DNA of 64,000 nt from a virus (taxonomy: Duplodnaviria; Heunggongvirae; Uroviricota; Caudoviricetes), in IMG/VR virus record IMGVR_UViG_3300033463_000007, positions 95,865 to 159,864 of that record. One strand, written 5' to 3'. The notes beneath the pieces were generated by a model. It was not told the DNA's origin. It did not search any database and saw only the letters and a list, made by a program, of their open reading frames with translations. How positions within the stretch are numbered: the first letter of the stretch is position 1; each line of letters opens with the position of its first letter. Position numbers and translations under genes: made by a program. Of the stretch, positions 4,402 to 25,055 are shown piece by piece.

Positions 4402-4433
4402 AAAAAAGAGTATCCAATTTGGATACTCTTTTT
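4402..4433 (+). terminator. Rho-independent terminator
   Basis: AAAAGAGTATCCA / TGGATACTCTTTT stem. Confidence 0.85.
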
Positions 4434-4437
4434 ATAT

Positions 4438-4451
4438 GCTAAATTATACGA
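4438..4451 (+). promoter_or_regulatory. putative phage late promoter, copy 1
   Basis: GCTAAATTATACGA directly after a terminator and upstream of an RBS and gene. Confidence 0.6.
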
Positions 4452-4480
4452 ATAATTAAATTTTTAATGAGGGTTATTTT

Positions 4481-5557: not shown

Positions 5558-5580
5558 AATAATTAATAAAGATAAGAAGG

Positions 5581-5883: not shown

Positions 5884-5911
5884 AAAATTAATATATTTTA
5901 AGTATAATTTT

Positions 5912-5949
5912 AAAATAGAAGAACATAATAATATGTTCTTCTATTTTTT
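5912..5949 (+). terminator. Rho-independent terminator followed by a sigmaA-like promoter
   Basis: AAAATAGAAGAACATA / TATGTTCTTCTATTTT, then TTGTATATT at 5951; near-identical to 11154-11203. Confidence 0.85.
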
Positions 5950-6000
5950 ATTGTATATTATAATACAAACAAATAAGTCTTACGGAAAGGAATTTTTAAA

Positions 6001-6588: not shown

Positions 6589-6625
6589 GATATTAATAAT
6601 ATAAATTTGAAAGGAAATTTTAAGT

Positions 6626-7240
6626 ATGGAAATGTTCAATGGAATGTTTGGAAAAGTGGCCCCCGGAATGTGCAGACTTTCTATGAGCGGAGGACTTGCA
6701 GTAAAGACAAGTAATGGTTATAAGACATATAATCTTAAGACTAACAGACTTACTAACTGCAACAACTTTGTATTTAATATTGGTGAGGAATTTTTCTTCA
6801 TAATTCCCACTAATAAAGTAGAAAAGGGAGACATTATTCTTGTGACTGGTAAGCCAAAGTGTGTTGTAGATGTAGGTAAGGATACAATTAAGGTTATTGA
6901 TTATGAGGATTCTACTGTAAAAGATATTCTTCCAGAGCGTCATGTATTTATGGGTAATACTTATTTCTATGGTAAGATTGTTTCTATGTTTGGTAACGAT
7001 TTTGCTAAGGGTAAGAAAGGCATGAATAAGATTATGTCTTATATGATGATGTCTGAAATGATGAAAGGTAATACCGGCACTGCTAATAATGGCATGAGTG
7101 CTATGCTGCCCTTCATGATGATGTCCGGCGGTAACTTTAATAATATGTTCGATGGCATGTTTGACTTTGATTTTGATACTACAGATGATAATGATGAAGA
7201 TGCTTTTGAAGATGTAGATGATGAAAAGGACGGTGAATAA
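6626..7240 (+). CDS. hypothetical protein with Met-rich and acidic C-terminus
   Basis: ORF track; RBS; MSYMMMSEMM / MLPFMMMSGG segment; first gene of the triad with the vWA and PurA-like genes. Confidence 0.8.
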   Translation: MEMFNGMFGKVAPGMCRLSMSGGLAVKTSNGYKTYNLKTNRLTNCNNFVFNIGEEFFFIIPTNKVEKGDIILVTGKPKCVVDVGKDTIKVIDYEDSTVKDILPERHVFMGNTYFYGKIVSMFGNDFAKGKKGMNKIMSYMMMSEMMKGNTGTANNGMSAMLPFMMMSGGNFNNMFDGMFDFDFDTTDDNDEDAFEDVDDEKDGE

Positions 7241-7242
7241 TA

Positions 7243-8121
7243 ATGGGTGGTGGATCTTGGACTTCTAAAGATTTCGCTTCTTATTCTACTGCAAGAGGAT
7301 TAGATATATCTTATGATAGTAGTGGTTATGCTACAATAGCTAATAAGTATTCTACTCAGGATCTGTATTCATCAAACTTTCTTCAGGATATTCTAAATCC
7401 TTATGGAGTAGTAAGACAGTGTTGTGATTCAGAAGAGCATCCTAATACTATCCCGGTAATACTCGCTTTGGACGTTACCGGTAGTATGGGCGGAGCTGCT
7501 ACTGCAGTTGCTAGAAAACTGAATGAAGTAATGACAAGACTTTATGAGCAGGTTCCTGATGTAGAGTTTTGTATCATGGGTATAGGTGATCTTGACTATG
7601 ATGCTGCACCCATTCAGATATCACAGTTTGAATCAGATATTCGTATTGCTACTCAGCTTGATAAAGTTTATTTTGAAGGTGGGGGTGGCGGTAATGGATT
7701 TGAGTCATATACTGCTGCTTGGTATATGGGATCAAGACATACTGATCTAGATTGTTGGAAACGTGGTCAGAAGGGTATTATTATTACAATGGGTGATGAG
7801 CCTTTGAATCCTTATTTACCAAAGAAAAGATTGGCTCATGTTACTGGTGATAACCTGGAAGCAGATATTGAAACTTCTGCTTTATATAAAGAAGTAACTG
7901 AAAAATTCGATGTATATCATCTGGCTGTAAAAGATGAGGATAGTAGCTATGAGTGGCATAAGAGAGAACTTCATAAATCTTTTGGTAAATATTTTGATGA
8001 AGATCATCTGCGTGTAGTAACTCTCGATAACATTGCAAATGTTATTGTAGATATTATTTCAAAGTCTACTTCGGCAAGTGCAAATGTAATTGAGAATCCA
8101 TCGGAAGGAATTGCGTGGTAA
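7243..8121 (+). CDS. vWA (MIDAS) domain protein
   Basis: ILALDVTGSM MIDAS motif; GGGG...ESY; IITMGDE. Confidence 0.8.
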   Translation: MGGGSWTSKDFASYSTARGLDISYDSSGYATIANKYSTQDLYSSNFLQDILNPYGVVRQCCDSEEHPNTIPVILALDVTGSMGGAATAVARKLNEVMTRLYEQVPDVEFCIMGIGDLDYDAAPIQISQFESDIRIATQLDKVYFEGGGGGNGFESYTAAWYMGSRHTDLDCWKRGQKGIIITMGDEPLNPYLPKKRLAHVTGDNLEADIETSALYKEVTEKFDVYHLAVKDEDSSYEWHKRELHKSFGKYFDEDHLRVVTLDNIANVIVDIISKSTSASANVIENPSEGIAW

Positions 8122-8124
8122 TAT

Positions 8125-9333
8125 ATGGATAAAAAGAAGGTCAAAGTTATTATTGGCGCTAACTATGGCGACGAAGGAAAAGGATTAGCTACAAACTATT
8201 TTTCTTCATTTAGTCATAAATGCTTAAATGTATTATTTAATGGTGGCTGTCAAAGAGGTCACACAGTTGAGCTAATAGATGGTACGCGACATGTATTTCA
8301 TCATTTTGGTAGCGGTACATTTAATGGTGCTAATACATACTTTGACCAAAATTTTATTCTAAACCCAATAATGTTTTGCCAAGAGTATGATGAGTTGAAA
8401 GCTATTATTGATACCCTGCCTCAATGCTACGTATCCCCTGAATGCAGAGTATCTACTCCTTATGATGTTTTTGTTAATCAGATAGTAGAAACAGTTAGGG
8501 GTGAAAATAGACATGGATCATGCGGCTGGGGTATTTGGGAAACTACTCAGAGATATAAAGATGAATGGTATAATCGTCCACTGTCTGATTTAGCTCTAAT
8601 GAGTGATAAAGGACTTTGGCTCTATTTTGCAAATGCAGCTTGCTATGCTATTGATAGATTGGCTACAGAATATAATATATCATATGAAGATATTCCTGAA
8701 GAATATAAAAAGCTTTTTGAATCTGAGACACTCAAGCTTAATTTCATATTAGATTTTAAAAGAATGATTTCTCTTATGAAATTTAAGGAGTTTAATGAAA
8801 TAGCTTCTGAATATGATACTATTATATTTGAAGGCGGGCAAGGTATTGCATTAGATGAAAATAATGTAGAGGAGTATCCAAATGTAACTGCAAGTAGCAC
8901 TACTTCTAATATTCCAATGCAAAGGATAAAAGATTTAGATTGTGATGTAGAAATTTGTTATATAACTCGATCATACTTTACTCGACATGGTGCCGGCAAA
9001 TTTCTTACTGAATGCGCTAAATCAGAGATCAATCCTGATATTGAAGATAAGACAAATGTCTATAATGATTATCAGGAATCTATTAGATATGGATTATTTT
9101 CTTTAAAAGATTTTGAATGGCGAATATTTGAAGATTTTCATAATGCTTGGAAAATAAAATCTGATATTAAATGTTCAGTTTTCATTACACATTTAAATTA
9201 TACAAATGGTAATATAGCTGGTGATTGTGATATTTCAGATATAATAAAAAGATTTGATATAAGTTATTTATGTGATGAAAAATATGGAATGTATGTAATA
9301 AAGAAAGGAAATACAAAAAATGATACAAATTAG
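8125..9333 (+). CDS. divergent adenylosuccinate-synthetase (PurA)-family protein
   Basis: GANYGDEGKG P-loop; NGGCQRGHTV; HGSCGWGIWET; IIFEGGQG; the substrate loop is divergent (TRSYFTRHGAG). Confidence 0.8.
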   Translation: MDKKKVKVIIGANYGDEGKGLATNYFSSFSHKCLNVLFNGGCQRGHTVELIDGTRHVFHHFGSGTFNGANTYFDQNFILNPIMFCQEYDELKAIIDTLPQCYVSPECRVSTPYDVFVNQIVETVRGENRHGSCGWGIWETTQRYKDEWYNRPLSDLALMSDKGLWLYFANAACYAIDRLATEYNISYEDIPEEYKKLFESETLKLNFILDFKRMISLMKFKEFNEIASEYDTIIFEGGQGIALDENNVEEYPNVTASSTTSNIPMQRIKDLDCDVEICYITRSYFTRHGAGKFLTECAKSEINPDIEDKTNVYNDYQESIRYGLFSLKDFEWRIFEDFHNAWKIKSDIKCSVFITHLNYTNGNIAGDCDISDIIKRFDISYLCDEKYGMYVIKKGNTKNDTN

Positions 9334-9706
9334 ACCACATACTTTTGAAACAAATAGTTCAAGTACTCATAGTTTAGTAATGTGTTCAGATGATGAATAT
9401 AAGCTGTGGTTACAAGGAAAAACATATCTATGTATTTGGGAAGGTTATTTTGCGCAAGAAGCTAGAGACAAGTATAATATTCCAGAATTTAAAGAAAATC
9501 AATTTTATCCAGTTGATGAAATAGATAAACTATTTAATGAAACTCTTGCAGAAAATGAATTTGGATATGCATATGATAGATATGACTATTTTCAAACAGC
9601 AGATGAATACTTTGATTCAGAATATCTTGAAAGTTATGATGAAACATATGAAACAAAAAGTGGTGAAATAATTCATGCTTTTGGATTATATGGATATGAT
9701 GGATAA
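9320..9706 (+). CDS. short FETNSSS-motif family protein
   Basis: MIQIRPHTFETNSSSTHS; overlaps the end of the PurA-like gene. Confidence 0.8.
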   Translation: MIQIRPHTFETNSSSTHSLVMCSDDEYKLWLQGKTYLCIWEGYFAQEARDKYNIPEFKENQFYPVDEIDKLFNETLAENEFGYAYDRYDYFQTADEYFDSEYLESYDETYETKSGEIIHAFGLYGYDG

Positions 9707-9732
9707 TTATATGTAATATAATAATTACAACT

Positions 9733-9767
9733 GAAATGTCGCATAAAATATGTGACATTTCTTTTTT
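9733..9767 (+). terminator. Rho-independent terminator
   Basis: GAAATGTCGCATA / TATGTGACATTTC plus T tract. Confidence 0.75.
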
Positions 9768-9776
9768 ATAGTATCT

Positions 9777-9790
9777 GCTAAATTATATGA
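9777..9790 (+). promoter_or_regulatory. putative phage late promoter, copy 2
   Basis: GCTAAATTATATGA after a terminator. Confidence 0.6.
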
Positions 9791-9837
9791 TATATAATTA
9801 TACAAACTGAAAAATATTATATAGAGGAGATATTTTT

Positions 9838-9987
9838 ATGGGTGTAGATAAATTAAATGATAGATTAATAAATATTGAATCCGCATTAGGCGGGGATACT
9901 CCTGTTCCAGTTGATACAGCTGATAGATTAGATTGGCACTTAGTTGAAATTGAGCGTCTAATTGATTATAATGAAAATTGTAAATAA
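9838..9987 (+). CDS. 49-aa protein homologous to the N-terminus of ORF 12515
   Basis: AGAGGAG RBS; DRLINIESALGGDTP...DRLDWHL versus DHLKNIASALGGSGTP...DKLDWYL. Confidence 0.6.
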   Translation: MGVDKLNDRLINIESALGGDTPVPVDTADRLDWHLVEIERLIDYNENCK

Positions 9988-10044
9988 TATATATGAAGAT
10001 TAATTATATAATTAAATTACTGCTCTATAAAGGGAGTTAATTTT

Positions 10045-11130
10045 ATGAACTATACAGATAGATTAATAGAAAATTATGAATACCCGCCAGAGTTTGAAGT
10101 TGATGATGACGGATATTTTTGTACTTTAGTAAAATATGCTGGTACAAATGCTAATGTAGTTATTCCTAATGGTATTACTGAAATTGGAAGGGACGCCTTT
10201 AGAGGTAATGCTTTTATAGAAAATGTTACTATACCTAATACTGTTAAAAGTATAGAACCTTTAGCTTTCTGTGATTGTAAAAATTTAAAAACTGTAAATA
10301 TGTCTGATAAGCTTTTTTCTATTCATCATAGTGCATTTATGCGGTGTACCAGTTTATATAAAATAACTATTCCAGATAGTGTTAAAGAGGTTGGCTATCA
10401 TACTTTTGATGGTTGTACATCTTTAACCGATGTAGTTTTACCTAAAAAGTTCTACAATATAGTATATGCCATGTTTCAAGATTGCCACAGTTTAATAAAC
10501 ATAAATATTCCAGATAATCTTCATGCTATTGACTCGGCAGCATTTAGAAATTGTAAGAGTTTAACTACCCTAGATTTTTTTAATACCCAGATCGGAGACA
10601 TTGAAAATAATGCTTTTAGTGGTTGTTCGAAGTTATCTACTTTAATATTTCCTAATTGCTTATACAAAATTTATCTTAACTGTCTTGATGGGTGCATAAA
10701 TTTAAAACAAGTTGTATTACCTGCTAATGTAAAATTGCCTATAGAGTCTGATCAGCCAACCTCTTGTAAAATTATAGCTAATAGTTTACATGTATTACTT
10801 AAATTAAGTGGGTATGATTCTTTACATACTGCACGACATACTGTTTGTTTAAATCCCGACTTTTATATTAATTTTCCTTACTATAAAGATATTAAAGAAG
10901 CATCTACTGAATTTGATTTGTCTGAATTTGATTTGTCTATATTTAAGACGGATACCGATATTTTTATTGGTATTATTGTAGCACTAGTATTAAGAAAAAA
11001 TACTATCGCTAAAGAACTTGCTAAAGCTTTATCCTATTCACAAGATGAAATAAAAGCAGCATTAAAGACCGTTACGAATGACACAACAAGCATGCAAATT
11101 ATAGCAGATAAGTTAAATGCACTTAATTAA
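10045..11130 (+). CDS. BspA-type leucine-rich-repeat protein
   Basis: ORF track; IPNxVxxIxxxAFxxCxxL repeats; helical C-terminal domain shared with 4481-5557. Confidence 0.88.
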   Translation: MNYTDRLIENYEYPPEFEVDDDGYFCTLVKYAGTNANVVIPNGITEIGRDAFRGNAFIENVTIPNTVKSIEPLAFCDCKNLKTVNMSDKLFSIHHSAFMRCTSLYKITIPDSVKEVGYHTFDGCTSLTDVVLPKKFYNIVYAMFQDCHSLININIPDNLHAIDSAAFRNCKSLTTLDFFNTQIGDIENNAFSGCSKLSTLIFPNCLYKIYLNCLDGCINLKQVVLPANVKLPIESDQPTSCKIIANSLHVLLKLSGYDSLHTARHTVCLNPDFYINFPYYKDIKEASTEFDLSEFDLSIFKTDTDIFIGIIVALVLRKNTIAKELAKALSYSQDEIKAALKTVTNDTTSMQIIADKLNALN

Positions 11131-11153
11131 TAAATAATATAAATAATAATTTT

Positions 11154-11203
11154 AAAAAATAGAAGAACATATTAGTGTGTTCTTCTATTTTTTATTGTAT
11201 ATT
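11154..11203 (+). terminator. Rho-independent terminator plus sigmaA-like promoter
   Basis: AAAATAGAAGAACATA / TGTGTTCTTCTATTTT, then TTGTATATT at 11195. Confidence 0.85.
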
Positions 11204-11231
11204 AATATAGAATAATTTTTGGAGGCTGTTA

Positions 11232-12119
11232 ATGAAAGTTATCGGATCATATAAGAATGGTAATTATAAGGTAATTATATTTGAAGATGGTACAAAGGTA
11301 AGAGCAAATAATCTTAACTTTTTTAGACCAGACATGCCTGAATCAATGGATATTAAAATTACTAACATGTGTGATATGGGCTGTAAACAATGTCATGAGG
11401 ATTCTATACCTGATGGTAAGCATGGCGATATTATGAATCTTAAGTTTATAGAGACACTCCATCCTTATACAGAACTTGCTATTGGCGGTGGTAATCCTCT
11501 TGCTCATCCTGATCTCGTTTCTTTTTTGGATAAATGCAAGTCGCTTAGACTTATTCCCTCTATGACAATTAATCAGGTTCATTTTATGAGAGATTATGAG
11601 CTGGTTAAATTTCTTGTAGATAGCAAACTTATTTATGGCCTGGGTATTTCATTAACTAATGCCAGAGACGAGAAGTTTCTTGATTTAGTTAAGCAGTTTC
11701 CTAATGCTGTTATTCATGTAATTGCTGGATTGGCATCTATTAGAGACTTACAGTATCTCGCAGATCGTGGTCTTAAAATTCTTCTTCTTGGTTATAAGCA
11801 ATTTAGAAGAGGCGAGAGTCTATATAGTAAAGATTCAAAAATTATTGATCAGAAAATTCAGGATCTTAAGGATAATCTTGGACAGGTTACTTCTTGGTTT
11901 GATGTAGTAAGTTTTGATAATCTTGCAATTAAGCAGCTTGATCCAAAGCGTATTCTCACAGATGAGGAGTATGACGAATTCTTTATGGGCAATGATGGTT
12001 TTGCAACTATGTATGTAAATTGTGTAGAAGAGGAATTTGCAGTATCTTCAACGTCTACAGAAAGATATCCTATTAAAGATAATATAAAAGATATGTTTGA
12101 AGTAATACGAAAGAGGTAG
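11232..12119 (+). CDS. radical SAM protein (no SPASM domain)
   Basis: CDMGCKQC (CX3CX2C); AIGGGNPL. Confidence 0.9.
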   Translation: MKVIGSYKNGNYKVIIFEDGTKVRANNLNFFRPDMPESMDIKITNMCDMGCKQCHEDSIPDGKHGDIMNLKFIETLHPYTELAIGGGNPLAHPDLVSFLDKCKSLRLIPSMTINQVHFMRDYELVKFLVDSKLIYGLGISLTNARDEKFLDLVKQFPNAVIHVIAGLASIRDLQYLADRGLKILLLGYKQFRRGESLYSKDSKIIDQKIQDLKDNLGQVTSWFDVVSFDNLAIKQLDPKRILTDEEYDEFFMGNDGFATMYVNCVEEEFAVSSTSTERYPIKDNIKDMFEVIRKR

Positions 12120-12429: not shown

Positions 12430-12460
12430 AAATGGGTATCTATTTTAGATACCTATTTTT
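12430..12460 (+). terminator. Rho-independent terminator
   Basis: AATGGGTATCTA / TAGATACCTATT plus T tract. Confidence 0.7.
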
Positions 12461-12475
12461 ATATCTATCTGATAT

Positions 12476-12489
12476 GCTAAATTATACGA
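12476..12489 (+). promoter_or_regulatory. putative phage late promoter, copy 3
   Basis: GCTAAATTATACGA after a terminator, heading the 12.5-25 kb operon. Confidence 0.6.
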
Positions 12490-12514
12490 GATCTTATAAA
12501 GGAGTTTCAATATA

Positions 12515-13387
12515 ATGAGTAAAGATAGATTAGATGATCATTTAAAAAATATTGCATCTGCCCTTGGTGGCTCTGGTACACCTACAACTGAAGATAAATT
12601 AGATTGATATTTAAATAATATTACTTCTTTAATTGAAGGTGGCGGAGGCAGCGCTATTCAGTTAAAAACTATTAATGGTCAGGATTTACAGGGAGAAGGT
12701 AATATTGAAATTACTACCTATCAGGCTTTTCCGGCTGATTGAGCAAGCTATACTACTTCCACAACTAAGACAATAGATTTTTGTAAACATATAGATACAG
12801 ATGATACAGCAACAATCGGTATGGGATATTTTGGTGGTGCATCTTTTAAAGACAAGCCAGCAGGTCTCAGTAATTTTGATGTAGTTGTTGAAATTTTAGC
12901 CGGTCCAAAACAAAATGGTGTAGCTACAAAAGCAATACATTTAATTGGAACAAGCAGTAATATCTATCCTTATAGGTGAGAATATACTTTCTGGTCACAT
13001 ACACATGAAAGCGGCTGGCGTGGTGTACAACCAGAATTAACTACATCATCTATTACTGATGGAACACCAACTACAGTTATAGGTTTTGATTCTCAGGGTA
13101 GTCTTGTAAAAGCTAATACACCATCAGTTAAAATGTATAGTCATATGGTAATTATGACAAATAATATAATTAGACTTATTCTTCCATTTGCAGATTCAAT
13201 AGAAAATCATAAAGCAAGTATGGTACAAGGTATAGTTGGAACACGATTACATTTTGAAACTTATGAGCCAACATTAGGACTTGGTTGAATCTTTTGAAAT
13301 GTAGACGAATGGTCACTTTGAGATGTTACAGGAACAGAAATTGCTTATAGTGAAACATGCAATGATGTTATAACAGAATTAGAATAA
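12515..13387 (+). CDS. putative virion accessory protein (290 aa, code 4)
   Basis: AAGGAG RBS; continuous frame with several TGA-Trp; LKTINGQDLQGEGNIEI fibre-like motif. Confidence 0.75.
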
Positions 13388-13413
13388 CACAAATATAAGG
13401 AGTATTATTTCTT

Positions 13414-13980
13414 ATGCCTAATATACAAATAAATATTAATGAAAATAAAACAACAACACTAGCTACAGCTGGAAAGTATTGTGCAGATAATATTGATATA
13501 GTTACAGCAGTTCCTTCTGTTGGTGGGGTTTATTTAAGTGATGCTTCTGTAAGTGGCAGCACTTTAACATTAACAAAGCTTGATAAAACAGTTGATCCTG
13601 AGACATCTACCACAATAACATTTACTGCCTCTGATTCTATTTTATGATGTACTTCATCAACCACTTATGGAGATATAACAACAGCTTTAAGCAGCAGTAA
13701 AATTCCTGTTTATAAATCTGGCAATACTTTATATTTTTATACCGGTACCGGAACAAATAGTTATATTTTTAGTAGGACTTACGGAAATACTATTTCCCAA
13801 ATTGAAGTTACCTCTTCTGGCTGAGGCAGTGTTGTTTCATCTGTATTAGAGCTTAATTCTAATAAAGCATCTACAATAAATGCTTCTTCACAAACAGCTG
13901 CCACAGATTTTCCAACAGTATCAGCGGTAGCTACATATGTTCAGAATGAGATTTCTACTGCTTTATCGGCTTCTTATTAA
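13414..13980 (+). CDS. putative virion accessory protein (188 aa, code 4)
   Basis: Track ORF 13414-13647 reads through two TGA to TAA 13978-13980; S/T-rich; motif WCTSSTTYGDITTAL shared with fibre genes. Confidence 0.75.
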
Positions 13981-13996
13981 TAAAGGAGTATAGTTA

Positions 13997-15166
13997 ATGA
14001 CTATTCCTAAAATAACTAAAATCGAATTATTTATTACCAATAAAAATAAGCTTAGCAGTAAATATACTAATGAAGTAATTAATACTAAAAAGTATATGGC
14101 TTTAAAAACTGCATATAAGCTTATTGATTATGTATATAATAATGCCCAAGAAGATAGTATTAATTCTGTTATATATTTTGCAGGAGATGAAGATTTAGCC
14201 CATTTTGAAAAGACAACAAAATCTTGTATTACATATATTAGAAATAAGGATAAGGAAAATAATACGCAAACCAAAATTACATTACAATTAACTGGTAAAA
14301 ATTTAACCGAGGATATTCTTAAATTTATATTTGATAATCAAGTTTATTTAAAAGTTATTTTTAATGAAAATATTCAGCCTGAACAAGCTTTTCCATATGA
14401 ATCTGGTCTAAAATTAATAACTAAATATTTACCAGAAACTTTTATTGACGTTATAATTAATCCAGAAAATATTAATTATTTATATAATTCTATTTTATAT
14501 ATAAATGAGCTTGGTTTTTCAAAGATAGAAATTAAACAAGACTTATATAGTATCTGAACTGATGAGAATTTTGATATTTTAGAACAGCAGCTTGACTTAT
14601 TAAATACATATTATAAAGAGAAACTTGATGATTATACTGTACCAGATATTCTTTTAAATTACGGAATTGTTTTTAAACAAAGAATACTTTGTGATTATAG
14701 TGAAATACACAATCTTTGTAGGACTCTTCCATTATGTAATTTAACAAAAAAGACTGGTTGTGGCTTTAATGATTTTATCGTTGCTGATTGTCTTGGTAAT
14801 TTATATACAAATGATCAGATTCCTTTTGATGTTGCAGAAAATAATATATTTTATGTTGGTACAGTGGAAAGTATAGATAGTAACAAAATAGGTTATTTAT
14901 TTGAACAACTATCAGAAAAAACAGTAAGTTCCGACAAACTATCTTGTAAGAAATGTCTATTAAATAATATTTGTGATGGCAGTTCCATTGTTAGTAATTA
15001 TATTATTACAAATAATTTATTAACTGTTCCATTTAGCTACTGTAGATGGCAACAAATATTTTTTAAGAAAATAAATGAATTTATTGAATATTTTGACTCT
15101 GCTCAAGATAATATTTTGTTTAAAGACTTCTTCTATGGTACTGTAACAAGGAGGTCTCATGAGTAA
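13997..15166 (+). CDS. degenerate radical SAM/SPASM-like protein (389 aa, code 4)
   Basis: Track ORFs 13997 and 14864 are one frame joined at TGA 14555. CX3CX2C is replaced by NKLSSKYT and GGEP by AGDED; the C-terminal Cys cluster (GCG...CKKC...IC...C) is retained. Confidence 0.7.
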
Positions 15167-16349
15167 ACCTTTATCTAATTGATTATTACAAGATATAAAT
15201 ATTAATGATATAGCACAAGCAGAAGTGATCCAAGAGGATATAGAAACTACACTAGTTAATTCTGCTACTTTAGTGACTAATGATGAAATAATTGCAGCCT
15301 ATTCAAATATTTATGGTGCTTATGGTAACTTCTATAATAAGGGCTATAGTATTTATAGTAATTATAGTAATTATAGTAACTATAGTAACTATAGTAATAC
15401 TATAAACATTAATACAAATCCAGTTGATAAAACAATTAAGCTCGGAGATTCTGTTACCTTTATAGTATCAACTAGTAATACTCCAGATAGTATTCAATGA
15501 TATAAATCTGATATACCTACCGGTGGTGGTTATGCTATTTCAGGTGCAACTTCATTAGTATATACTTTCACTCCGACCTTAGAAGATTCTGGTAAATATT
15601 TTTATTGTAAGGTAACTAGAAGTTCAAATACAAAAACATCATCTTCTGCCTTATTAACTGTTAAAGTGGTAACAGTTTGCAATGCTGCAGCAAGAGTGGG
15701 GGAAACTACAAATATTATTTGAACTGAATCACCAAGTGGAGATACTTTAACTGGCTGTACTTCTTCAAATACTTCAGTAGCAACTGTTACATCAGCCGGA
15801 GTTATAACTGGCGTAAGTGCAGGATCAGCAACTATTACTATAACATTAAGTTCAGGCATAACTGCTACTACTACAGTTATTATAATCGGTGAATTAGTAC
15901 CAACAGATTTAAGGTCTACATTTATTTGTTTAGCAAGTGCTATCCGAGCTTGTCGTGATATAACAACAAAGATATATCCAAATCAACTCGTATCAGCTTT
16001 GGCAGCTGGTGTCCCAACTAGTCAAACTTATACTACTTTAGCTGGATTATTTACTGCTCTCGGAAATGCTATCCGACAAATAAATAAGATGTCTGGCTCT
16101 TATACTATTACACAAATGTATGATGCCATTAGAGAATTCGGTAATTTAGCTGCACCTAGAATTTCTATTTCTGGAGATAATCTCAGTATTCAAGATATAT
16201 CTAGAATAGCTGATAGCTTTGATGTTTATGTTGATGGTGTATATGCTGCAAATGTATTACCATATGACTACACACAAAGTGGTGAGGAACTTACAATAGC
16301 TAATGCTCCATATACACAAAGTGGAGAAGAACTAATAATAGGGGAATAA
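15159..16349 (+). CDS. Ig-like domain protein with an N-terminal (YSN)5 repeat (396 aa, code 4)
   Basis: AGGAGG RBS; joins track ORFs 15225 and 15999 through TGA. IQWYKS...DSGKYFYCKV is an Ig I-set-like motif; SSNTSVATVTSAGVITGVSAGSATITIT is Big_2-like. Confidence 0.8.
15354..15398 (+). repeat. five tandem 9-bp units TATAGTAAY encoding YSN x5
   Basis: tatagtaat tatagtaat tatagtaac tatagtaac tatagtaat. Confidence 0.95.
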
Positions 16350-16351
16350 TT

Positions 16352-17344
16352 ATGTCAGTTAATATAAAATTAGGAAGCCATACAGTAACTGGGGTTTCAA
16401 GTATTAAAGTTGAATCAGCCGATACTGCAGGAACATATGAAACATTTTCTTTAGGAACTAGACCAACTTTAAATGCTCCAAGTATTTATAGCAGTACTTA
16501 TGATGGTCCTTATATTACAGACTACAAAAGTAATAATGGAAATTTTGTTGAAAGCTATGATATTTATCGTATTTATTTGAACAGTCATACTAAGATTGGT
16601 ACCTTTATAAAAAGTCCTGGTGGTTATAACCCTATTACAGAAGATAACTGTAATTTTTCCCTAGGTCTAAATAATATATATGCAATAGCAAAGGCAACAA
16701 ACTTTAATGATAGTCCAGTACCCAGTAGTGAAACAACTGTTAATTGTTATTCTATTAGTACAACATTATCAAATTGTATAGAAACTACTGAAAAAAATAA
16801 ATTTGTTCCGCATTCTTTTGAATTAACATTACAGGCAAATAGCGGATATGAGCTACCCTCCTCTATTCAGATAAAAAATGGTGCTTATACATATACTCTT
16901 AATGATGGAGTACTTACAGCTTTAACTCAAAGTTATGGAACCACTAATGGGTTTAGTGCAACCTATACAAAACTAAATGGAAAAATTGATATCAGAAATG
17001 GTTCTGGCACAGATTCAATTGAAATAATTGCAACAGCAACTGAAATTGTAGGTCAGCTTGTTACAGTTAATTATACTGTTGATGGTTATATGTGGGGAGA
17101 TTTACAAATCAGAGAAACTAATTCAAGCGGAACTATAAAATATACAGGCCATGACAGTGAAACTGTGGCGTTCAGTACAGAAGCCACAACATTATATATT
17201 GAGGTTATCAATTATCAGGAATTTAGTGGAAGTATAACATATGCCGGAAATACCTATTCAATAGATTCATCCACAGATCATGTATCTATAGTACTTGATG
17301 GAACACATACTGAAATTAATGCCTCAGTTGATTATTGGGATTAG
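16352..17344 (+). CDS. putative virion accessory / beta-rich protein
   Basis: ORF track; S/T/G-rich; LQANSGYELPSSI (B-repeat-like). Confidence 0.75.
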   Translation: MSVNIKLGSHTVTGVSSIKVESADTAGTYETFSLGTRPTLNAPSIYSSTYDGPYITDYKSNNGNFVESYDIYRIYLNSHTKIGTFIKSPGGYNPITEDNCNFSLGLNNIYAIAKATNFNDSPVPSSETTVNCYSISTTLSNCIETTEKNKFVPHSFELTLQANSGYELPSSIQIKNGAYTYTLNDGVLTALTQSYGTTNGFSATYTKLNGKIDIRNGSGTDSIEIIATATEIVGQLVTVNYTVDGYMWGDLQIRETNSSGTIKYTGHDSETVAFSTEATTLYIEVINYQEFSGSITYAGNTYSIDSSTDHVSIVLDGTHTEINASVDYWD

Positions 17345-17391
17345 TAAAATAGAACTAATATTTTATTAAAATTTTTAAGAGATAAACAAAA

Positions 17392-18237
17392 ATGAGTCTT
17401 ACAACTTTAGTTGGAACAAAATGAAGAGTGGATTATTCTAATAATATAGAAATTCCTGGTGAATGATATAATATTAGTTTTTCATCTTCTTATTTTAATA
17501 AAAGTTATACCAAATTTGGTGGTAACGATAATGAAATAATATATTACTATCCAGATTATGATGCAGCTATTGATATTGGAGTAGCCGAAAATATAGGTGT
17601 CGATTTTATTACAATAACCGGTGGTACAGAAGCAACAGCTTCACAAGTAATTGATTGGTTTGAAACTAATGCAAGCCAGGTTTTATCTTATACTTTTGAT
17701 TTAAATACATTGTCTTTAGGTAGTGGGACTCATAGTGTTTACGCACAGGCTAAAGCAGTTGGCTATGCAGATAGTTTAGTAAGTAGCGGAATAAACTATA
17801 CTATACTACCACAATTAGACACTCCTACCAATCTTTCCGTCAGCGGAACGACCGCAACATTCGATGAGGTAGAACACGCCGAGAGTTATGAGTTCTTTGT
17901 AGATGGAGCGAGTATTGGAGAATATTCGGCGGCACCGCAACCGCCCTTTACAAATGTTAAGATACAAGGTAATGGAGATTTTGCAAATGGCTGTTCCGTA
18001 ACTGTTGATGGTGTTGACATTACAAGTCAGATTAAGGGCTACCCAGGAACGCCTAAAACAATGACGGTCAATACTTCCTTTGTTGTTGTTAGTAGTGCAG
18101 GATGGCATGACACAATCGAGGTTTATGATGCTGAAGGCGGTAACCTTGTATGGACTAACAATAACACCGAAGGGACTTATGATTTAATGCCTTATTTGAA
18201 CAATGGCTATTATATATATCTTGATTTGGATAGTTAA
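17392..18237 (+). CDS. modular paralogue 1 with GTxW...ITGGT...WxETNA domain (281 aa, code 4)
   Basis: ATG 17392; three TGA-Trp in the 5' part; in frame with track ORF 17710. Confidence 0.75.
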
Positions 18238-18252
18238 GAGGGGGTGAGGTAA

Positions 18253-19035
18253 ATGGCTATAAGTGATTTAACAGGAACAACTTGGGTGTTTAATGCTATA
18301 TCAACAGATTCATTCACCGCAGTTGGCAATCAGTGGGACATTAATTTTATTTCTAATTCTACAAATTATTCTATTCTGGAGCAAGTTTTTGATGACGACT
18401 CTGAATTGGGTAAAATATATTATAATACTACAAATGTTTTTAATGTTGCCTATGGGGACGAAGATGGTTTGTGGGAGGACGAAGCATATAAAACTATTGA
18501 GATTACTGGTGGCACTGATGTAACAAACTCAACCCTCATCTCTTGGCTTGAAACAAACGCCACGCAACAGTCCTCTCAAATCTCCGTTGACCTCTCTACC
18601 TTATCAGGCTGGAGCGATGTAACATCAGGCTCACATACTCTCACAATTAAAGCCAAAGCAACAGGTTACCGGGACAGTGAGGCGTCGACAGGGGTGAGCT
18701 TCGAGAAAAGCGGGACAACTTATACTGTTAACCTGCGAGCAGATAATGGTTATGGAGCAGTACCTGGTCATGCACCTGATGGTTATGTCAAATATCGAGT
18801 GAATGGCTCAACAGTTGGTATGATAACAACCTACGGCGTAAGTACAACCCTGACTAATGTTGAACAATTAGAAATAAATTGTAACTATAACGGTGGCTTC
18901 ATAAACGAACTACGAGCATCGGATGAAAGTTTTATAACAGATTTATCGTACGATGGAGATGCGTGGACTGATGTTTCGGCATATCTTTCAACAATAGCCG
19001 CAGAGTCCTATGTGGTGATTTATTGTGAGGACTAA
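18253..19035 (+). CDS. modular paralogue 2
   Basis: ORF track; MAISDLTGTTWVFN...IEITGGTDVTNSTLISWLETNA. Confidence 0.8.
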   Translation: MAISDLTGTTWVFNAISTDSFTAVGNQWDINFISNSTNYSILEQVFDDDSELGKIYYNTTNVFNVAYGDEDGLWEDEAYKTIEITGGTDVTNSTLISWLETNATQQSSQISVDLSTLSGWSDVTSGSHTLTIKAKATGYRDSEASTGVSFEKSGTTYTVNLRADNGYGAVPGHAPDGYVKYRVNGSTVGMITTYGVSTTLTNVEQLEINCNYNGGFINELRASDESFITDLSYDGDAWTDVSAYLSTIAAESYVVIYCED

Positions 19036-19079
19036 ACTATAAAAGCACAGATAGTCTATGATCAAAGAGGTAATAATAT

Positions 19080-20675
19080 ATGTCAACAATAACTGATTTA
19101 ACAGGTACAATATGGATATTAAATGACATAATAAATGATTCATCAAGTAATTTTAATATAACATTTACATCAAATAGTCGAACATTCTATATACTTAATT
19201 TTGAAAGTTGGGACGATGATGTTGTATATTTCCAAAATGGAACAAATAGTTTAAAGTATTTATGGTCATTAAGTTATTATGTTCAATCAGCCGGAAGTTG
19301 AGATACTCCAGCTGTTTATGATGGAGATGATGACACTTGGAAGATTTCAACAAATAAATATAAGACAATAGAGATAACAGGTGGAACTGACGTAACTAAC
19401 ACTACCCTCATCTCTTGGCTTGAAACAAACGCAACACAAGTTCCGCCCTTCCCAATTTATACTTTTGATTTATCTACTTTAAATTTACCTGCTGGAAATT
19501 ATACAATAACTGTAAAAACAAAGGTAACTGGGTATAAAGATAGTATAGATAGTAATTCAGAAACATATTCTATTATTCCATCAAGTTGGCCAATCTCAAC
19601 AACAGTTACATATGGTTCTTATTCAGGAGCAACTTCTATTGCTGTAAATGGAACAGCTCAAGTAACAATTTCAGTAAATACAGGCTATGCTTTGCCCTTA
19701 TCAGACTCAGATATAACTGTAACAAATGCCACATTAGATTCTTATAATTCAAGTACCGGTGTTATTACTATCAGTAATCCAACTGGTAATGTTTCTATAA
19801 GTACAACTTGTCCAGTTGAATATTCTATTACAACGACTATAACTAATGGCACTTCTTCAGGTGATTCTACAATTATTGCAGGCTCGACAGCAACTGTTAA
19901 TATTAGCGCGAATAGTGGATATATTAGGCCAACAACAGTAGATGTTAATGGAGCAACATCTAGCTATAACTCTTCAACTGGAGTAATATCATTAAGTAAT
20001 CCAACTGGTAATGTTACAATAAGTGCTACTTGTTCTGCTACTTATTATATAAGTACAACAGTTGATTATGGTTATTATTCCGGAGCGTCTTCTATGATTG
20101 CTGGTGAAACAGCTTATGTAACTATTACTCCTTATACCGGATATATTAGGCCAACTGTCATAACAGTTACAGGTGCAACCTATTCTTATAATTCAAATAC
20201 AGGAGTAATATCATTAAGTAATCCACAAAATAATATAACAATTACAGCTACTTGTATTGAAAGATTAGATACACCCACATTATCAATAAGTGGTGATATT
20301 TTAACAATAGAAGATACTTCTGGTCATGCTGATTCATTTGATATTTTTGTTGATAGTATGTCTGCACCAGCTACAACTATATATACCGCTACAACTTATA
20401 CTATTATTATAACAGGCGGAGATAATACCGAATATCTTAGCTGTGGGTTCGCCCCGGAAAAAGGAACCAGTACTGATATTACAGATGAGACTACTAATAC
20501 TTTAATTGGCTCAGGAGGATTTTCTTTTAGTAGTGGTGTAGGCGATGATATAGTTATCACCAATGCAACAGGTGATTTTGTTAATGGTAATTATAGTACA
20601 AATGAATATGGTTCTTATCCAGCCCCAGAATTTGTTATTACACAAAATAGTTCCTGTACAGTTAATATTTTATAA
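19080..20675 (+). CDS. modular paralogue 3 with three ~70-aa B-repeat-like units (531 aa, code 4)
   Basis: Joins track ORFs 19080 and 19692 through TGA 19299; repeats ...SGYIRPTxVxVxGATxSYNSSTGVISLSNPTGNVTISATC. Confidence 0.8.
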
Positions 20676-20686
20676 GGTAAATTATT

Positions 20687-22039
20687 ATGAGTGTTACTAA
20701 TTTAACAAATACAATATGATATTTAAATGAAACTCTTGGGGATTCTGGTTGGGGCAGTTATGATGAAATAACTTTTAATATTACTTTTACCAGTAATGAA
20801 AATACTTATAATTCATTATATCTATATAGTGATTTTTCCTCACCAATAGATACTTGTTATATTAATAATGATAGTACAATGGTATATGATGGTTGAACAG
20901 CCACAGCTCATGGAAGAACACCAAGTTGAACTAATGATAATTATCGTATAATCAAAATTATTGGCGGCGGTGATGTTCGAAATTCTATTTTTATAGAATG
21001 ACTTGAAAATGAAGCAGTTCAATTAAAAGTAGATAATTTAACTAATACCACTTGAATCTGAAGATATATATATTTTAATGAAGAATCTTTTGATGATACA
21101 TATAATCTTGAAAGTAAGTATAATATTTCTTTCACAAGTAATTCTTCAAATTATACCTATATTAGCTTTAGTTGTAATGATCCAGATATGGATATTTATG
21201 ATTTATGGTATTGTACTACTTCTACTTGGCAGCAGGGTACATGAACAAAAGTTCTTGAAGCTCAATTATCATATTATGATCAAAATGAATATACTTGAAC
21301 TTGAACAAATAATAATTATAAACGCATAACAATAACTGGCGGAACTGATGTAACTAATCCTAATTTAATTAGGTGACTTACAAGATATGCTTCCTTAGTC
21401 ACTACTTATACTTATGATTTAACACAATTATCTCTTACAAATGAAGGTGTTTATCAAATTACTGGTAAGGCTAATGCAGTAGGTTGTGCTGCTAGTAATT
21501 GAAATGGTTGAGTTGGTTATGCAGTATTTCCACAGCTTGATACACCAACAAGTGTTTCAGTATCTAATACAACAGCATCATTTGATGCCATTGATAAGGC
21601 TGGGCAGTATGAATTTTTTGTAGATGGTCAAAGTATTGGAACTTATTCTGTTACTACAAGTGGTTATAACGTATTATTAGATTTATCTACTTCTGCTTTT
21701 GGATATGGACAAGATACATATTATGCAACATATATTAAAGTTTATGATGGTACAAGTAATGCCGGGACTTTATTAGCTTCAGACATATCTCCAACAGCAC
21801 CCACAACTAAAGATAAATCTTATATACGAGAATTAGTTAATTGTCAAACTGGTAATATTTATATTGAATGATATTGTGAATATTCTGATGGTATGATAAG
21901 TGAGGATTGATTACAAACAGGTTCTTCAAATTGTACAGTAATTCATAGTAGTGGATCTAGTGAAACTGCTCAAACAACTATAAGTATAACGGGCAACCCG
22001 GCAGTTATACATATGAGCGCTGAGGGTCTCCTTGATTAG
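20687..22039 (+). CDS. modular paralogue 4 with two copies of the domain (450 aa, code 4)
   Basis: Absent from the track. Continuous frame with ~14 TGA and 3 TGG; NLTNTIWYLN...IIGGGDVRNSIFIEWLENEA and NLTNTTWIW...ITGGTDVTNPNLIRWL. Confidence 0.8.
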
Positions 22040-22053
22040 GAGATAATATATAA

Positions 22054-22812
22054 ATGTCTAATATAAGTGATTTAACTGGTACAAAATGAACAATAGACAT
22101 ACTTCCAGAATCTTCTCCTTTAAATGATGAAGAAAGGCTATGATTAATTAATTTTACATCTAATGGAAATTCTTATAATAAATTAGGTTTTTATTGAGAT
22201 TATCAATGAATGATAGATATCTATTATTATCAAGGAAATGCTCAAACTTTAGTGTGGAATGGATGATCAGCAGGTGCAGATCCTGGAGTTTGAACAAACA
22301 GTGCTTATAGGACTATAGAAATTATAGACGGTGATGATGTGACAGATTCTGATCTTATTGATTGGCTTGAAGCAAATGCTATACAACAACTTTCAGTAGA
22401 TCTTTCTACACTTACCGGTTGGAGTAGTGTTACAGCAACAACACATACATTAACAATAAAAGCTAAGGGTACTGGCTATAGGGATTCAGTAGCTTCACAA
22501 GGTGCACTTTTTACAAAAGCTTTAGTTGGATATACATTATCTTTTACAGCAAATGCAGAGGCAGATATTGCTTTTATATATTATAAAACAACAACAGATC
22601 AATCTGGTACTGCCAGCAGAGAAATTTGGTATGGTACAACTCAAACAATACAAAATTGTACAGCTTTTTCTATATCAGGTAGTAGTGGAGCTTATTTAAA
22701 TAGTATATCTGGTACAATTATATCAGGTGTTAATGTTGGTGATTCTTTTATAATAGATAATTGATATGAGTTGGGTACAAATGTAACAATTGATGTTTCT
22801 TATTGGGTTTAA
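22054..22812 (+). CDS. modular paralogue 5 (252 aa, code 4)
   Basis: MSNISDLTGTKW...IEIIDGDDVTDSDLIDWLEANA...VDLSTLTGWS; in frame with track ORF 22339. Confidence 0.8.
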
Positions 22813-22879
22813 TAATAAAATTGTTTTATTGTATTATATATTATATTTAATAATATAATATTGAAAGGATATATTATTA

Positions 22880-24145
22880 ATGACAGATAAAGAATTATTT
22901 TTAAAATATAATATGGTACCAACTAATACCTATACAAAAGATGAAATATTAACAAATAAGTTATATAATAATGAAATAAAATGAGAGCCTGTTAATTTAC
23001 ATCATGATATACTTATTTTATTACATGGTTCCTATGCCTGTAATGCAAATTGTATTTATTGTGAAAATGGGGAACTTAGAAAAAAATATCATAATAAATT
23101 TATCTCTAAAGAAACTTTAAGATTGTTAATTGAAAGATTGGGCTCAAATATTAGAGAAATTACTTGACATGGCGGCGAGCCTCTCCTAATTCCAGAAGAT
23201 ACTATAGAATATTTAGAAGAACTAAAAAAAGAATATCATTATAATTTTCCAACAACATTACAAACAAATGGTATTTTATTAACAGATGAAAAAATAGATT
23301 TTTTAGATAAGTTAAATATTCAATGGGGAACAAGTTTTGATGGTTTACAAAATGACACTAGTCGCGGTAAGGCATCAACACAAGCACTTTTAAGATTAAT
23401 AAAAAAGTATCCTAATAAAACTTCTTTTATTTGTGTTAATTATAAAGATACTATTGATAATTTAATTAATAATTACGAATATTTTAAATCTCTTGGAGTC
23501 CAAGCAACACAATCTTGTGTAATTAAAGAAATTGTACTAACTGACAATAATCCATTATTAATAAAAAATGAAATAGCAATTCAAAAAGTACTAGAGTACA
23601 TTAATTATTGAATTCATGATATTAAAAATCCAATTGGCGATTCATATGTAACTAGATCAATTGAACGATTACTTGGTATTACACGAGTATGTGAAGATTC
23701 TTATTGTATTGGCGGCTGATTAATTATGGATCCAGATGGAAATTTAGGTTTTTGTGGGCATGCCGCAGAAGATCCCGGAGGATTGGGAAATATAAGAGAT
23801 ATCACTTCAGCACACGATCTTTTATATAGTCCAAAATATTTATCAATTATCGGAAAACAAGTTAAATTAGAGAAAACTTGCTCTCCTTGTCAATATTATA
23901 ATATTTGTCATTCTGGCTGTACAGGTTTAAATTATGAATATGACCATACTTATAATACTATAAATCCTCGAAATTGTGAATTTCAACTTGGTTTTTTAGA
24001 TGGTATTTATGAGCTAATAAAAGATATTGATACTTCACGACGAGATTTATATAATCCAATGTTTCTTCAGTTGCTTCGAGAAAATAATTATTACAGTTTA
24101 ACTGAAATTAAGGAGATTGAAAATGCCAAACATAGCAATCCTTAA
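22880..24145 (+). CDS. radical SAM/SPASM maturase-like enzyme (421 aa, code 4)
   Basis: CNANCIYC; IT(TGA=W)HGGEP; QTNG; C-terminal CEDSYC...FCGH...CSPC...ICHSGC...NC. Confidence 0.88.
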
Positions 24146-25055
24146 TTATTGTAATTTAAAATGCCCGTATTGTTTTGCAAATGAATTTATTGAATCAAGT
24201 AAGCAGCTAATTACAGATGAACAATTGGAAATTATTTTATTTTGATTAAGTCATACTGAAAGAATTGAAAAAATAGGGGTTATTGGCGGCGAGCCAACAA
24301 TTCACCCAAATTTTAAAAATATTATAATTAGATTAAAGCAATTTGCTTCAGAGCATAGTTCAAAAATTTGTGTTTTTTCTAATGGTATAAAATTAAGTGA
24401 TTATATTAAACTTTTTGATGCCAATACAGGTATTTTAATAAATATCAATCATCCAGATATTATTGGGCAATCAAATTGAAAACAATTAAAATTAAGTTTA
24501 AATAGATTTAAAGCATTAGATAAATTAAAATATACAAGTATAGGAATTAATTTATATCCAGAAATTCCTGATTTTAATTATATTATAGACTTGGCAAAAG
24601 AATTTAATTATCGGGTAATTCGTTGCAGTTATGTTGCTCCAACTTGTAAATATAAAGGAGTAGATAAAAATACCTATTACTTGCAGGCAAAACAAATGTT
24701 TATGGATTTTGCTAATGTTTGTAAAGAAAATAATATTGATATTAATTTGGATTGCAATAATGTACCTGTATGTTATTTTACTGAAGATGAATTAATAGAT
24801 TTACAGCATGTTCATAATTGAAAAACTCGTTGTGAACCGGTTGTTGATATTACACCTGATATGAAAGCAACTGCTTGTTTTGGTGCATATGATTTAGTTG
24901 ATTTAAATCAGTTTGATAACCTAGAAGAAGCCGAAAATTATCTATTATTTAAAAAAATATATCCAAAAAGAATAGCAAATTGTGCTGGTAAATGTGCAGA
25001 TTGTAAAAAATTTCAAAATTTATCTTGTCAAGGTGGCTGTTTAGCCTTTGTTTAA
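24123..25055 (+). CDS. radical SAM/SPASM-like enzyme (310 aa, code 4)
   Basis: CNLKCPYC; IGGEPT; FSNG; C-terminal C...C...CADC...CQGGC; overlaps the previous gene. Confidence 0.88.

Follow-up and report, generated by a model that had tools for sequence, protein, structure and literature searches.

A phage gene cassette of the radical SAM/SPASM maturase type that probably modifies a tyrosine-repeat Ig-domain protein

Radical S-adenosylmethionine (SAM) maturases with SPASM domains are known from small secreted peptides and from a few enzymes (sulfatases, QhpC). Among the peptides that ribosomes synthesize and that are then post-translationally modified (RiPPs), the triceptides are made by enzymes that form three-residue cyclophanes (3-CyFEs: XyeB, GrrM/OscB, FxsB, YhhB, ChlB, MicB, and HtkB). 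Their cores follow an omega1-X2-X3 rule (PMC11499958). Among the proven substrate motifs are YDR and YSK (PMC11499958, PMC12912966), and the bond proven for YSK joins Tyr-C3 to the Lys C-beta (PMC12912966). Here, we describe a related cassette in a 64,000-nucleotide stretch of gut phage DNA, which we call the window. The window comprises bases 95865 to 159864 of an IMG/VR record of 232,051 bp that CheckV rates as complete. The cassette consists of three radical SAM genes, rSAM1, rSAM2, and rSAM3, and a gene for a Tyr-repeat protein with immunoglobulin (Ig)-like domains, the putative substrate (SUB). Judged from comparison of homologous loci, the system is real, conserved, and undescribed, and it is a variant of radical SAM/SPASM peptide or protein maturation. 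Full-text literature searches returned no paper on phages using radical SAM/SPASM maturases on their own structural proteins. Both sequence and structure models suggest that the cassette probably modifies the Tyr-repeat protein, in a RiPP-like form of protein maturation. Its features are as follows, in window coordinates.

13997..15166, + strand: rSAM1, 389 aa, an apparent PapB/CteB-like radical SAM/SPASM pseudoenzyme, the proposed leader-binding scaffold
15147..15166, + strand: rSAM1-SUB coupling site, read off the sequence, with the Shine-Dalgarno sequence AGGAGG 5 nt upstream of the start/stop overlap ATGAGTAA
15159..16349, + strand: SUB, the putative substrate protein, 396 aa, with leader, Tyr-period-3 core, two Ig domains, and C-terminal region
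15159..15218, + strand: putative leader recognition motif of SUB, aa 1-20, LSNWLLQDININ, with its invariant W8 encoded by TGA
15300..15398, + strand: putative core of SUB, aa 48-80, with 10 Tyr and 1 Phe at a main spacing of 3, ending in (YSN)x5
15408..15893, + strand: two Ig-like domains of SUB, I-set/Ig_3 and then Big_2 (Pfam, PHROGs, AlphaFold2, Foldseek)
15894..16346, + strand: C-terminal region of SUB, the proposed anchor, with a conserved helical segment (LYPNQ, LFT.L) and then a module common to neighboring paralogs
16352..22812, + strand: intervening block of six genes, five of them paralogs sharing an N-domain of ~100 aa; it splits the cassette and lies outside the conserved core
22880..24145, + strand: rSAM2, 421 aa, an intact radical SAM/SPASM enzyme, anSME/DynA-like, the proposed main cross-linking catalyst
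24123..25055, + strand: rSAM3, ~310 aa, an intact short radical SAM enzyme with a Cys-rich, SPASM/twitch-like C-terminal region

Like the triceptide systems, the cassette combines radical SAM/SPASM maturases with an aromatic-X-X core whose middle residue is free and with an N-terminal leader predicted to be recognized without a RiPP recognition element (RRE) domain, and the phage enzymes have ChlB among their top neighbors in both structure and sequence. It differs in that the phage enzymes score far below every 3-CyFE cut-off, 10 to 23 Tyr units stand in tandem, and Ig domains follow the core. The phage cassette also has three radical SAM genes, one of them apparently dead, and no protease or exporter. 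A classic RiPP precursor is short, carries its core at the C terminus, and loses its leader; SUB has the leader and core, but its core is internal.

Read with genetic code table 11, the region is fragmented; table 4, in which TGA encodes Trp, gives tightly packed genes on the + strand. TGA codons occur at aa 8, 114, and 188 of SUB and at aa 35, 96, 244, and 280 of rSAM2. Some of these positions (W8 and W114 of SUB; W96, W244, and W280 of rSAM2) are invariant Trp in homologs, including those of standard-code phages, and the recoding is therefore real. Gaps between genes are short, and we saw no strong + strand terminator within 12458-25055. A first-pass annotation of this DNA had reported a radical SAM gene overlapping the start of SUB, which we confirmed: the rSAM1 stop overlaps the SUB start in ATGAGTAA. 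A SUB-type start also overlaps the end of rSAM1 in nine other loci (L002, L004, L006, L009, L010, L017, L020, L022, and L023). The rSAM2 and rSAM3 genes overlap by 23 nt, with the ATG at 24123 the likely rSAM3 start and a TTG at 24117 also open.

SUB has the architecture that the same annotation gave to the open reading frame (ORF) at 15159, namely an acidic N terminus, a Tyr repeat, and then Ig domains, as seen in the code-4 translation, in Pfam matches, and in an AlphaFold2 (AF2) model. Residues 1-47 are acidic (8 D/E versus 1 K/R, pI 4.05). The core of 33 residues contains 10 Tyr, 1 Phe, and no Cys, and Tyr makes up 30% of it compared with 4% of the remaining protein. Its (YSN) run is encoded by the 9-bp tandem repeat TATAGTAAT, present six times at 15345-15398. 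Across alignments of 7-9 homologs, S6, W8, and L9 of the leader are invariant, within a motif LSxWLL, as is the core Tyr at each third position; the residue at X2 varies, and that at X3 is mostly Asn.

The Ig-like domains were recognized by several methods. In Pfam, Big_2 scores above its cut-off and Ig_3 and I-set score below theirs; AF2 gave a predicted local distance difference test score (pLDDT) of mostly 81-94 for aa 80-240. PHROGs matches of SUB are Ig-domain tail-fiber and structural families, and the Foldseek matches of the Ig model are Ig folds in tandem, ranks 2-3 being taken by chains of 9e99, a reconstruction of the phage N4 capsid. SUB thus shares tandem Ig-like domains with T4 Hoc and with the 9e99 proteins, but Ig folds are generic, and SUB has no recognizable capsid-binding domain. 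We know of no Ig-domain phage decoration or fiber protein, T4 Hoc and N4 included, that carries modifications installed by radical SAM enzymes. Nothing usable came from an atlas search with the homologous C-terminal region of SUB, in which the best score was 0.76.

To place the cassette among its relatives, we gathered loci through an rSAM1 profile search, scans for the leader/core and the substrate, and rSAM2 homologs. All four genes are present in each of the nine contigs long enough to hold the cassette (L006, L009, L010, L012, L013, L014, L016, L023, and L022, whose contig end truncates rSAM1), and in most of them they form a single compact block of overlapping genes; parts of the cassette are present in the short contigs L002, L007, L008, and L015. 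A word-index search with rSAM1 found one homolog, P0002, an intact radical SAM/SPASM enzyme, and its end is overlapped by a gene that opens with LSDWLLENLDIN, followed by a Tyr-rich stretch. A search with leader and core found P0005 and P0006, whose locus, L006, belongs to a phage reading TAG as Gln and contains rSAM1, a Tyr-repeat Ig protein, rSAM2, and rSAM3 as one block of four overlapping genes. The rSAM1 profile search yielded 203 representatives at E<=1e-30. Whichever search was used (rSAM1, substrate, or rSAM2), a Tyr-repeat protein adjoins the enzymes in every contig long enough to judge, which is the co-occurrence the first-pass annotation had expected.

The cassette-bearing genomes use three genetic codes (TGA = Trp, TAG = Gln, and standard), and because the family spans all three, we consider it a real, selected system and not a one-genome curiosity. 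Identity to the window proteins is 40-69% for rSAM2, 49-73% for rSAM3, 28-37% for rSAM1, and 34-48% for SUB. The arrangement varies around a constant center. L009 (224 kb, TGA = Trp) has a different three-gene insert between SUB and rSAM2, and the cassette is thus split at this point both there and in the window, by unrelated genes that look structural; the compact cassettes of L006, L010, L013 (157 kb), L014 (from human gut), L016 (185 kb), and L023 lack the intervening block. L012 (TGA = Trp) has the order rSAM1-rSAM2-rSAM3-SUB and a follower that is not an Ig domain, and in L022 other repeats follow the Tyr core. Gene order and follower domains change in this way, and adjacency, leader, and Tyr period remain constant. 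Even the close relatives L013, L014, and L016 differ in how many repeat units they have. The examined cassettes share no conserved gene for a protease, a transporter, or immunity. The rSAM2 clade comprises ~64 metagenome-only clusters (90% identity clustering) found at 39-69% identity, none of them named, and the next sequences are at most 33% identical. Searching viral contigs with rSAM2 alone gave no match, and in the phage GenBank collection its only matches were distant, anSME-like, and at most 27% identical.

Three further observations concern these loci. In the SUB gene of L013, a TAG (L013:10094-10096) stands where its TAG-recoded relatives L014 and L016 have TGG (Trp). In the code-4 contig L002, a GT8-like glycosyltransferase gene with a DxD motif (L002:1-732) lies directly upstream of an intact rSAM1, a placement that hints that some cassettes may add glycosylation. 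Five rSAM1 homologs (P0018, P0025, P0030, P0048, and P0056; 536-757 aa) have an apparent intein-like insertion straight after CxxxCxxC (e.g., CRYC-APAGTKIL), and intein and Hint genes neighbor the cassettes of L009, L010, and L012.

Ten Cys are conserved across the rSAM1 family, three of the radical SAM site and seven of the SPASM domain. The rSAM1 proteins of the window, L009, and L023 lack the three radical SAM Cys, the SAM-binding motif GGEP (GDED in the window), and SPASM Cys 1, 2, and 6, and they retain SPASM Cys 3, 4, 5, and 7. From the anSME structures (PDB 4k36-4k39), we take Cys 1, 2, and 6 to serve auxiliary cluster I and Cys 3, 4, 5, and 7 to be the full set of auxiliary cluster II ligands. 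The earlier description of this enzyme as cysteine-less therefore holds for the CxxxCxxC triad, which is gone, but not for the SPASM region, where four of the seven Cys remain. The window and L009 proteins are 37% identical over their full length. AF2 folded rSAM1 with a pLDDT of 90.2 and a predicted template modeling (pTM) score of 0.89, and only the former cluster loop, aa 20-27, was uncertain; the nearest folds are CteB (5why, TM score 0.68), anSME, TigE, and ChlB. By its residue pattern, this rSAM1 is a pseudoenzyme, a conserved noncatalytic partner and not a decaying gene, and the models suggest that it probably only holds the substrate. That the same four Cys are kept in the window, L009, and L023 favors one origin or strong convergence. 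In the rSAM2 tree, consulted on a single or double origin of the rSAM1 decay, six of seven forks fall below support.

We modeled leader binding with a near-cognate pair, P0021 (92% identical to the rSAM1 of L006) and aa 1-95 of P0005, the L006 substrate. The pair scored 0.76 versus 0.00 for the best control. Of 78 solved complexes, 51 attained that mark, as did 2 of 108 mismatched pairs; the runs had 18% or more of their contacts in common, and partner pLDDT was at least 35. The confident contacts join substrate aa 2-19, which correspond to the conserved leader, to rSAM1 aa 239-249 and 373-397. The second of these rSAM1 segments, (Y/H)FD...N.LFK.(F/Y)(F/Y).G, is kept in all Tyr-type rSAM1 proteins, the three dead ones included. 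Its counterpart in the window is aa 360-384 (YFD..DN.LFKDFFYG.V), with F366, D367, K376, F379, Y380, and V383 at the contact positions. The model thus supports binding of the leader to rSAM1 through a predicted interface. Known noncatalytic partners of RiPP pathways (stand-alone RRE proteins and the "pseudo-SAM/SPASM" family TIGR04347) are likewise derived from maturases, have lost catalysis, and are retained with their pathways. Unlike them, rSAM1 keeps the whole radical SAM/SPASM fold with one auxiliary cluster site, and the predicted site of leader binding is its C-terminal helices instead of an RRE.

Family placement was judged from hidden Markov model scores and PDB matches, as a proxy for a reference tree. 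Over its full length, rSAM1 matches the NCBIfam PapB model with 62 bits against a cut-off of 340, and its profile matches CteB in the PDB (6.5e-29). Its intact homologs also match PapB best (167-193 bits against 340), followed by nif11, CcpM, SCIFF, QhpD, and CXXX-repeat maturases. Membership of rSAM1 in the PapB family (NF047865) fails on its sub-cut-off score and its lack of CxxxCxxC and GGEP, and the core contains no Cys. As for the likeness to ranthipeptide/SCIFF and CXXX-repeat maturases (PapB, CteB, TIGR04115), rSAM1 and the 203 representatives match PapB best and CteB structurally, and sister phage loci pair rSAM1 homologs with Cys-repeat cores. The phage system differs from these in its Cys-free core, in an rSAM1 without the radical SAM and auxiliary I clusters, and in scores below the cut-offs.

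The first-pass annotation had also listed two intact radical SAM/SPASM genes. Both rSAM2 and rSAM3 do carry CxxxCxxC and GGEP, but the SPASM label of rSAM3 comes from its Cys pattern only, as it matched none of the SPASM models. rSAM2 has CNANCIYC, GGEP, and eight conserved Cys in the SPASM region, including CxxCx5CxxxC, so that all seven SPASM Cys are present, versus four of seven in rSAM1. It aligns to positions 8-331 of the 363-position anSME (anaerobic sulfatase-maturating enzyme) profile, scoring 90.6 bits against a cut-off of 349 (TIGR03942), and scores 86.4 bits with DynA, also below cut-off. The 3-CyFE families score lower (YhhB 67, GrrM 57.7, AmcB 49.6, FxsB 38.6, and XyeB 38.2 bits; cut-offs 310-450). 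PDB matches of rSAM2 are anSME (1e-15), CteB (3e-12), ChlB (1e-4), and also TigE. rSAM3 has CNLKCPYC, GGEP, conserved C213, C239, and C254, and a C-terminal CxxC..C...C. The expected grouping with peptide maturases was thus borne out for rSAM1 and rSAM2, which fall with PapB, CteB, anSME, DynA, and ChlB and away from enzymes of cofactors or nucleotides, but it is ambiguous for rSAM3, with its MoaA/viperin resemblance.

anSME, which makes formylglycine in sulfatases, and QhpD, which makes thioethers in QhpC, resemble the phage system as SPASM enzymes acting on a protein or subunit, and anSME is the best sequence match of rSAM2. Unlike those systems, the phage cassette has no sulfatase and no (C/S)xPxR motif, targets a tandem Tyr repeat, and includes a leader. 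We rejected an anSME/sulfatase reading of the locus, as SUB contains no (C/S)xPxR and no sulfatase signature was found within the window.

Loci that lack part of the cassette suggest what each enzyme follows. L021 has rSAM2 and rSAM3 (40% and 50% identity) and no rSAM1, and the adjoining protein lacks the LSxWLL leader and carries its Tyr-period-3 run internally. Conversely, there are rSAM1 homologs that have no rSAM2-type gene beside them and are followed by overlapping genes for proteins with Cys-repeat cores. With an rSAM1 homolog alone, these are CxxxC repeats at L017:1368-1628 and a protein with a Cys-rich C terminus beside a tail-fiber-like gene at L020:9265-9915. At L004:9200-10066, rSAM3-like and rSAM1-like genes are followed by a Cys-rich protein whose C terminus is, by eye, tail-fiber chaperone-like, and L003:9029-9514 encodes CxC repeats. 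From the contrast of L021 with the Cys-repeat loci, rSAM1 appears to track the leader, and rSAM2 and rSAM3 the Tyr core. The Cys-repeat loci may represent a sister system, one that would put thioether-type links into structural proteins. Separately, a lone radical SAM gene at L024:7817-9101, 33% identical to rSAM2 and its nearest sampled relative outside the clade, lies among bacterial housekeeping-type genes and adjoins a 65-aa precursor-like ORF with aromatic-rich motifs (PYGPYHCDTHDNY). The two are probably an uncharacterized bacterial RiPP pair related to the phage enzymes.

These observations fit a scheme in which SUB would be made in the late phase of infection, with TGA then decoded as Trp. 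Its leader, LSNWLLQDININ, would be captured by rSAM1, whose gene would be translationally coupled to that of SUB. Lacking the radical SAM and auxiliary I clusters, rSAM1 would act as a leader-binding scaffold only and would present the Tyr-X-X core (aa 48-80) to rSAM2 and rSAM3. One or both of these would then install covalent side-chain cross-links by means of 5'-deoxyadenosyl radicals. The likeliest product would be a run of three-residue, triceptide-like cyclophanes joining Tyr to the C-beta of X3 (mostly Asn). Tandem Tyr-X-X cyclophanes are favored because the invariant aromatic residue, free X2, and mostly-Asn X3 fit the omega1-X2-X3 rule. The outcome would be a stiff, protease-resistant, Tyr-rich tip on an Ig-domain protein that would join the virion through its C-terminal part. 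The proposal that a leader and core are served by three radical SAM enzymes withstood both computational tests that the first-pass annotation had named as able to refute it, co-occurrence and enzyme grouping, the latter clear for rSAM1 and rSAM2 and ambiguous for rSAM3, and it is consistent with the near-cognate co-fold. We infer the cyclophane bond type, the division of labor between rSAM2 and rSAM3, the fate of the leader, virion incorporation, and the biological role. Conceivably, a T4-type prohead protease could cut off the leader at (L/I)xE sites.

Another chemistry on the same substrate is unlikely, though not negligible: Tyr-Tyr C-C or C-O links, epimerization, anSME-type oxidation of Ser or Asn, hydroxylation, or two different reactions. 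The best matches of rSAM2, all sub-threshold, are to anSME and DynA and not to a curated 3-CyFE family; many units read YYN or YYD, in which Tyr-Tyr links are sterically conceivable; and the retention of two intact enzymes in every cassette suggests two reactions. However, the sole invariant of the core is its Tyr period of 3, with X3 mostly Asn and X2 free, which fits omega1-X2-X3 better than a Ser-directed reaction, and the repeat units of the L023 core (YDN) contain no Ser. A sulfatase-type oxidation is further opposed by the missing (C/S)xPxR and sulfatase signature noted above.

Because a conserved radical SAM set accompanies a Tyr-repeat Ig protein, the phage probably cross-links its own structural protein. 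Virion membership of SUB is suggested by its Ig domains, its PHROG matches to Ig-bearing tail and structural families, the fiber-like neighbors of the cassette in L006 (an Mtd_N protein) and L023 (100 kb, standard code; the cassette adjoins tail-fiber and tape-measure genes), a C-terminal module common to paralogs, and late-type recoding. In L010 (121 kb, standard code), the cassette is located a few kb upstream of genes for a portal and a prohead protease of the T4 type. The C-terminal region of SUB would be the anchor that joins the virion. Conceivably, the leader and core are instead modified, cut off the Ig protein, and released as a bioactive peptide, antibacterial or signaling, for which the Ig domains are a carrier or follower. 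The leader-core architecture is RiPP-like, and the followers differ (Ig mostly, other repeats in L012 and L022) as though the N-terminal module were autonomous. We consider this improbable, as the cassette conserves none of the protease, transporter, and immunity genes, and the core always continues straight into a folded domain (YSN-TI.I). To our knowledge, phage Ig domains are nearly always on virion proteins, which also counts against a released peptide.

Least probable is that the Tyr/Ser/Asn repeat is a glycosylated or adhesive low-complexity linker, with (YSN)n readable as (NYS)n N-X-S sequons and the radical SAM enzymes acting on a sugar, nucleotide, or cofactor: the GT8-like gene before rSAM1 in L002 and the MoaA/viperin resemblance of the rSAM3 N terminus would fit, but a scan of ORFs at 12.5-26.2 kb gave no match to a glycosyltransferase family, rSAM1 and rSAM2 match peptide maturases, a leader-rSAM1 interface is predicted, and adjacency is kept in every sufficiently long contig sampled. 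The N-glycosylation sequon itself was rejected, as it is not conserved in L023 (core YDN/YNY) or L012 (core largely YGD/YYN).

Several points weigh against maturation of SUB by cross-linking and against its display on the virion. None of rSAM1, rSAM2, and rSAM3 reaches any curated family cut-off, and the bond type therefore cannot be read from homology. The matches of rSAM3 are weak and confined to its N-terminal part, and they are to MoaA, viperin, and SkfB. Whereas a classic RiPP core is C-terminal, that of SUB is followed by 316 residues including two folded Ig domains. The co-folded pair comes from relatives and is not the window's own, and because a ChlB-leader complex has been solved (9gm3), the passing score may partly reflect a similar known structure. 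Around the cassette, the T4 late-promoter motif TATAAATA and sigma-70-like sites occur only at chance frequency, so the operon structure is a candidate only. As for the virion, the cassette lies ~90 kb from the portal gene, and the C-terminal region of SUB has low AF2 confidence and no recognizable fold. The evidence is in silico throughout, and the cyclophane chemistry is a prediction only.

The genome encodes a T4-type portal at 18.6 kb and is that of a T4-like phage. In the window, TGA = Trp codons start at ~12.1 kb: they are almost absent from 1-12119 and frequent in 12126-64000, with up to 35 in one ORF. This distribution looks like a code-dependent separation of early and late genes. Three tRNAs (Lys, Leu, and Gln) are encoded in the window, and none is a TGA suppressor. 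A fourth radical SAM-type gene (11232-12119; 295 aa, PHROG 16999 "Fe-S oxidoreductase," 5e-47) contains no TGA codons and lies 1.9 kb upstream of the cassette, and a further weak Radical_SAM match lies at 75.6 kb in the genome.

In the intervening block, the five paralogs at 17392-22812 share their N-domain (LTGT.W ... ITGG.DVT ... WLE.NA), which has two copies in ORF 20687 and no Pfam match in the four copies scanned. Apart from ORF 19080, with a single weak match to each, no gene of the block matched a Pfam or PHROG family. The C-terminal module of SUB (..SISGD.L.I.D.S..ADSFD..VD) recurs in ORF 19080. Farther downstream, a 2,897-aa ORF with 35 TGA = Trp codons (41374-50067) is followed by five ORFs of 638-1,153 aa (50069-62976), two of which match BppL_N and Laminin_G_3. 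By these matches and sizes, 41374-62976 is a giant fiber/baseplate-like module. The window also encodes a BspA-type leucine-rich repeat protein (4481-5557) and an adenylosuccinate synthetase (8125-9333).

In its broadest form, the proposal is that large gut phages macrocyclize the tip of a virion Ig protein into 10-20 Tyr cyclophanes, with a catalytically dead enzyme that still retains iron-sulfur as dedicated leader chaperone in some lineages and Cys-repeat sister systems on tail-fiber-like proteins. We offer this only tentatively. The family is sizeable, with ~64 rSAM2 clusters and 203 rSAM1 representatives, all unnamed and metagenomic. If our reading is true, rSAM1 would be a clean example of a maturase turned leader-binding pseudoenzyme with exactly one auxiliary cluster site, and the core would offer a natural, highly repetitive substrate for studying processive formation of cyclophanes or other links. 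The system would be the first case of RiPP-type radical chemistry on a virus particle, and radical SAM "hardening" would be a general phage strategy. It would extend virion biology by a new class of post-translational chemistry, with possible gains in protease resistance, stiffness, and gut adhesion.

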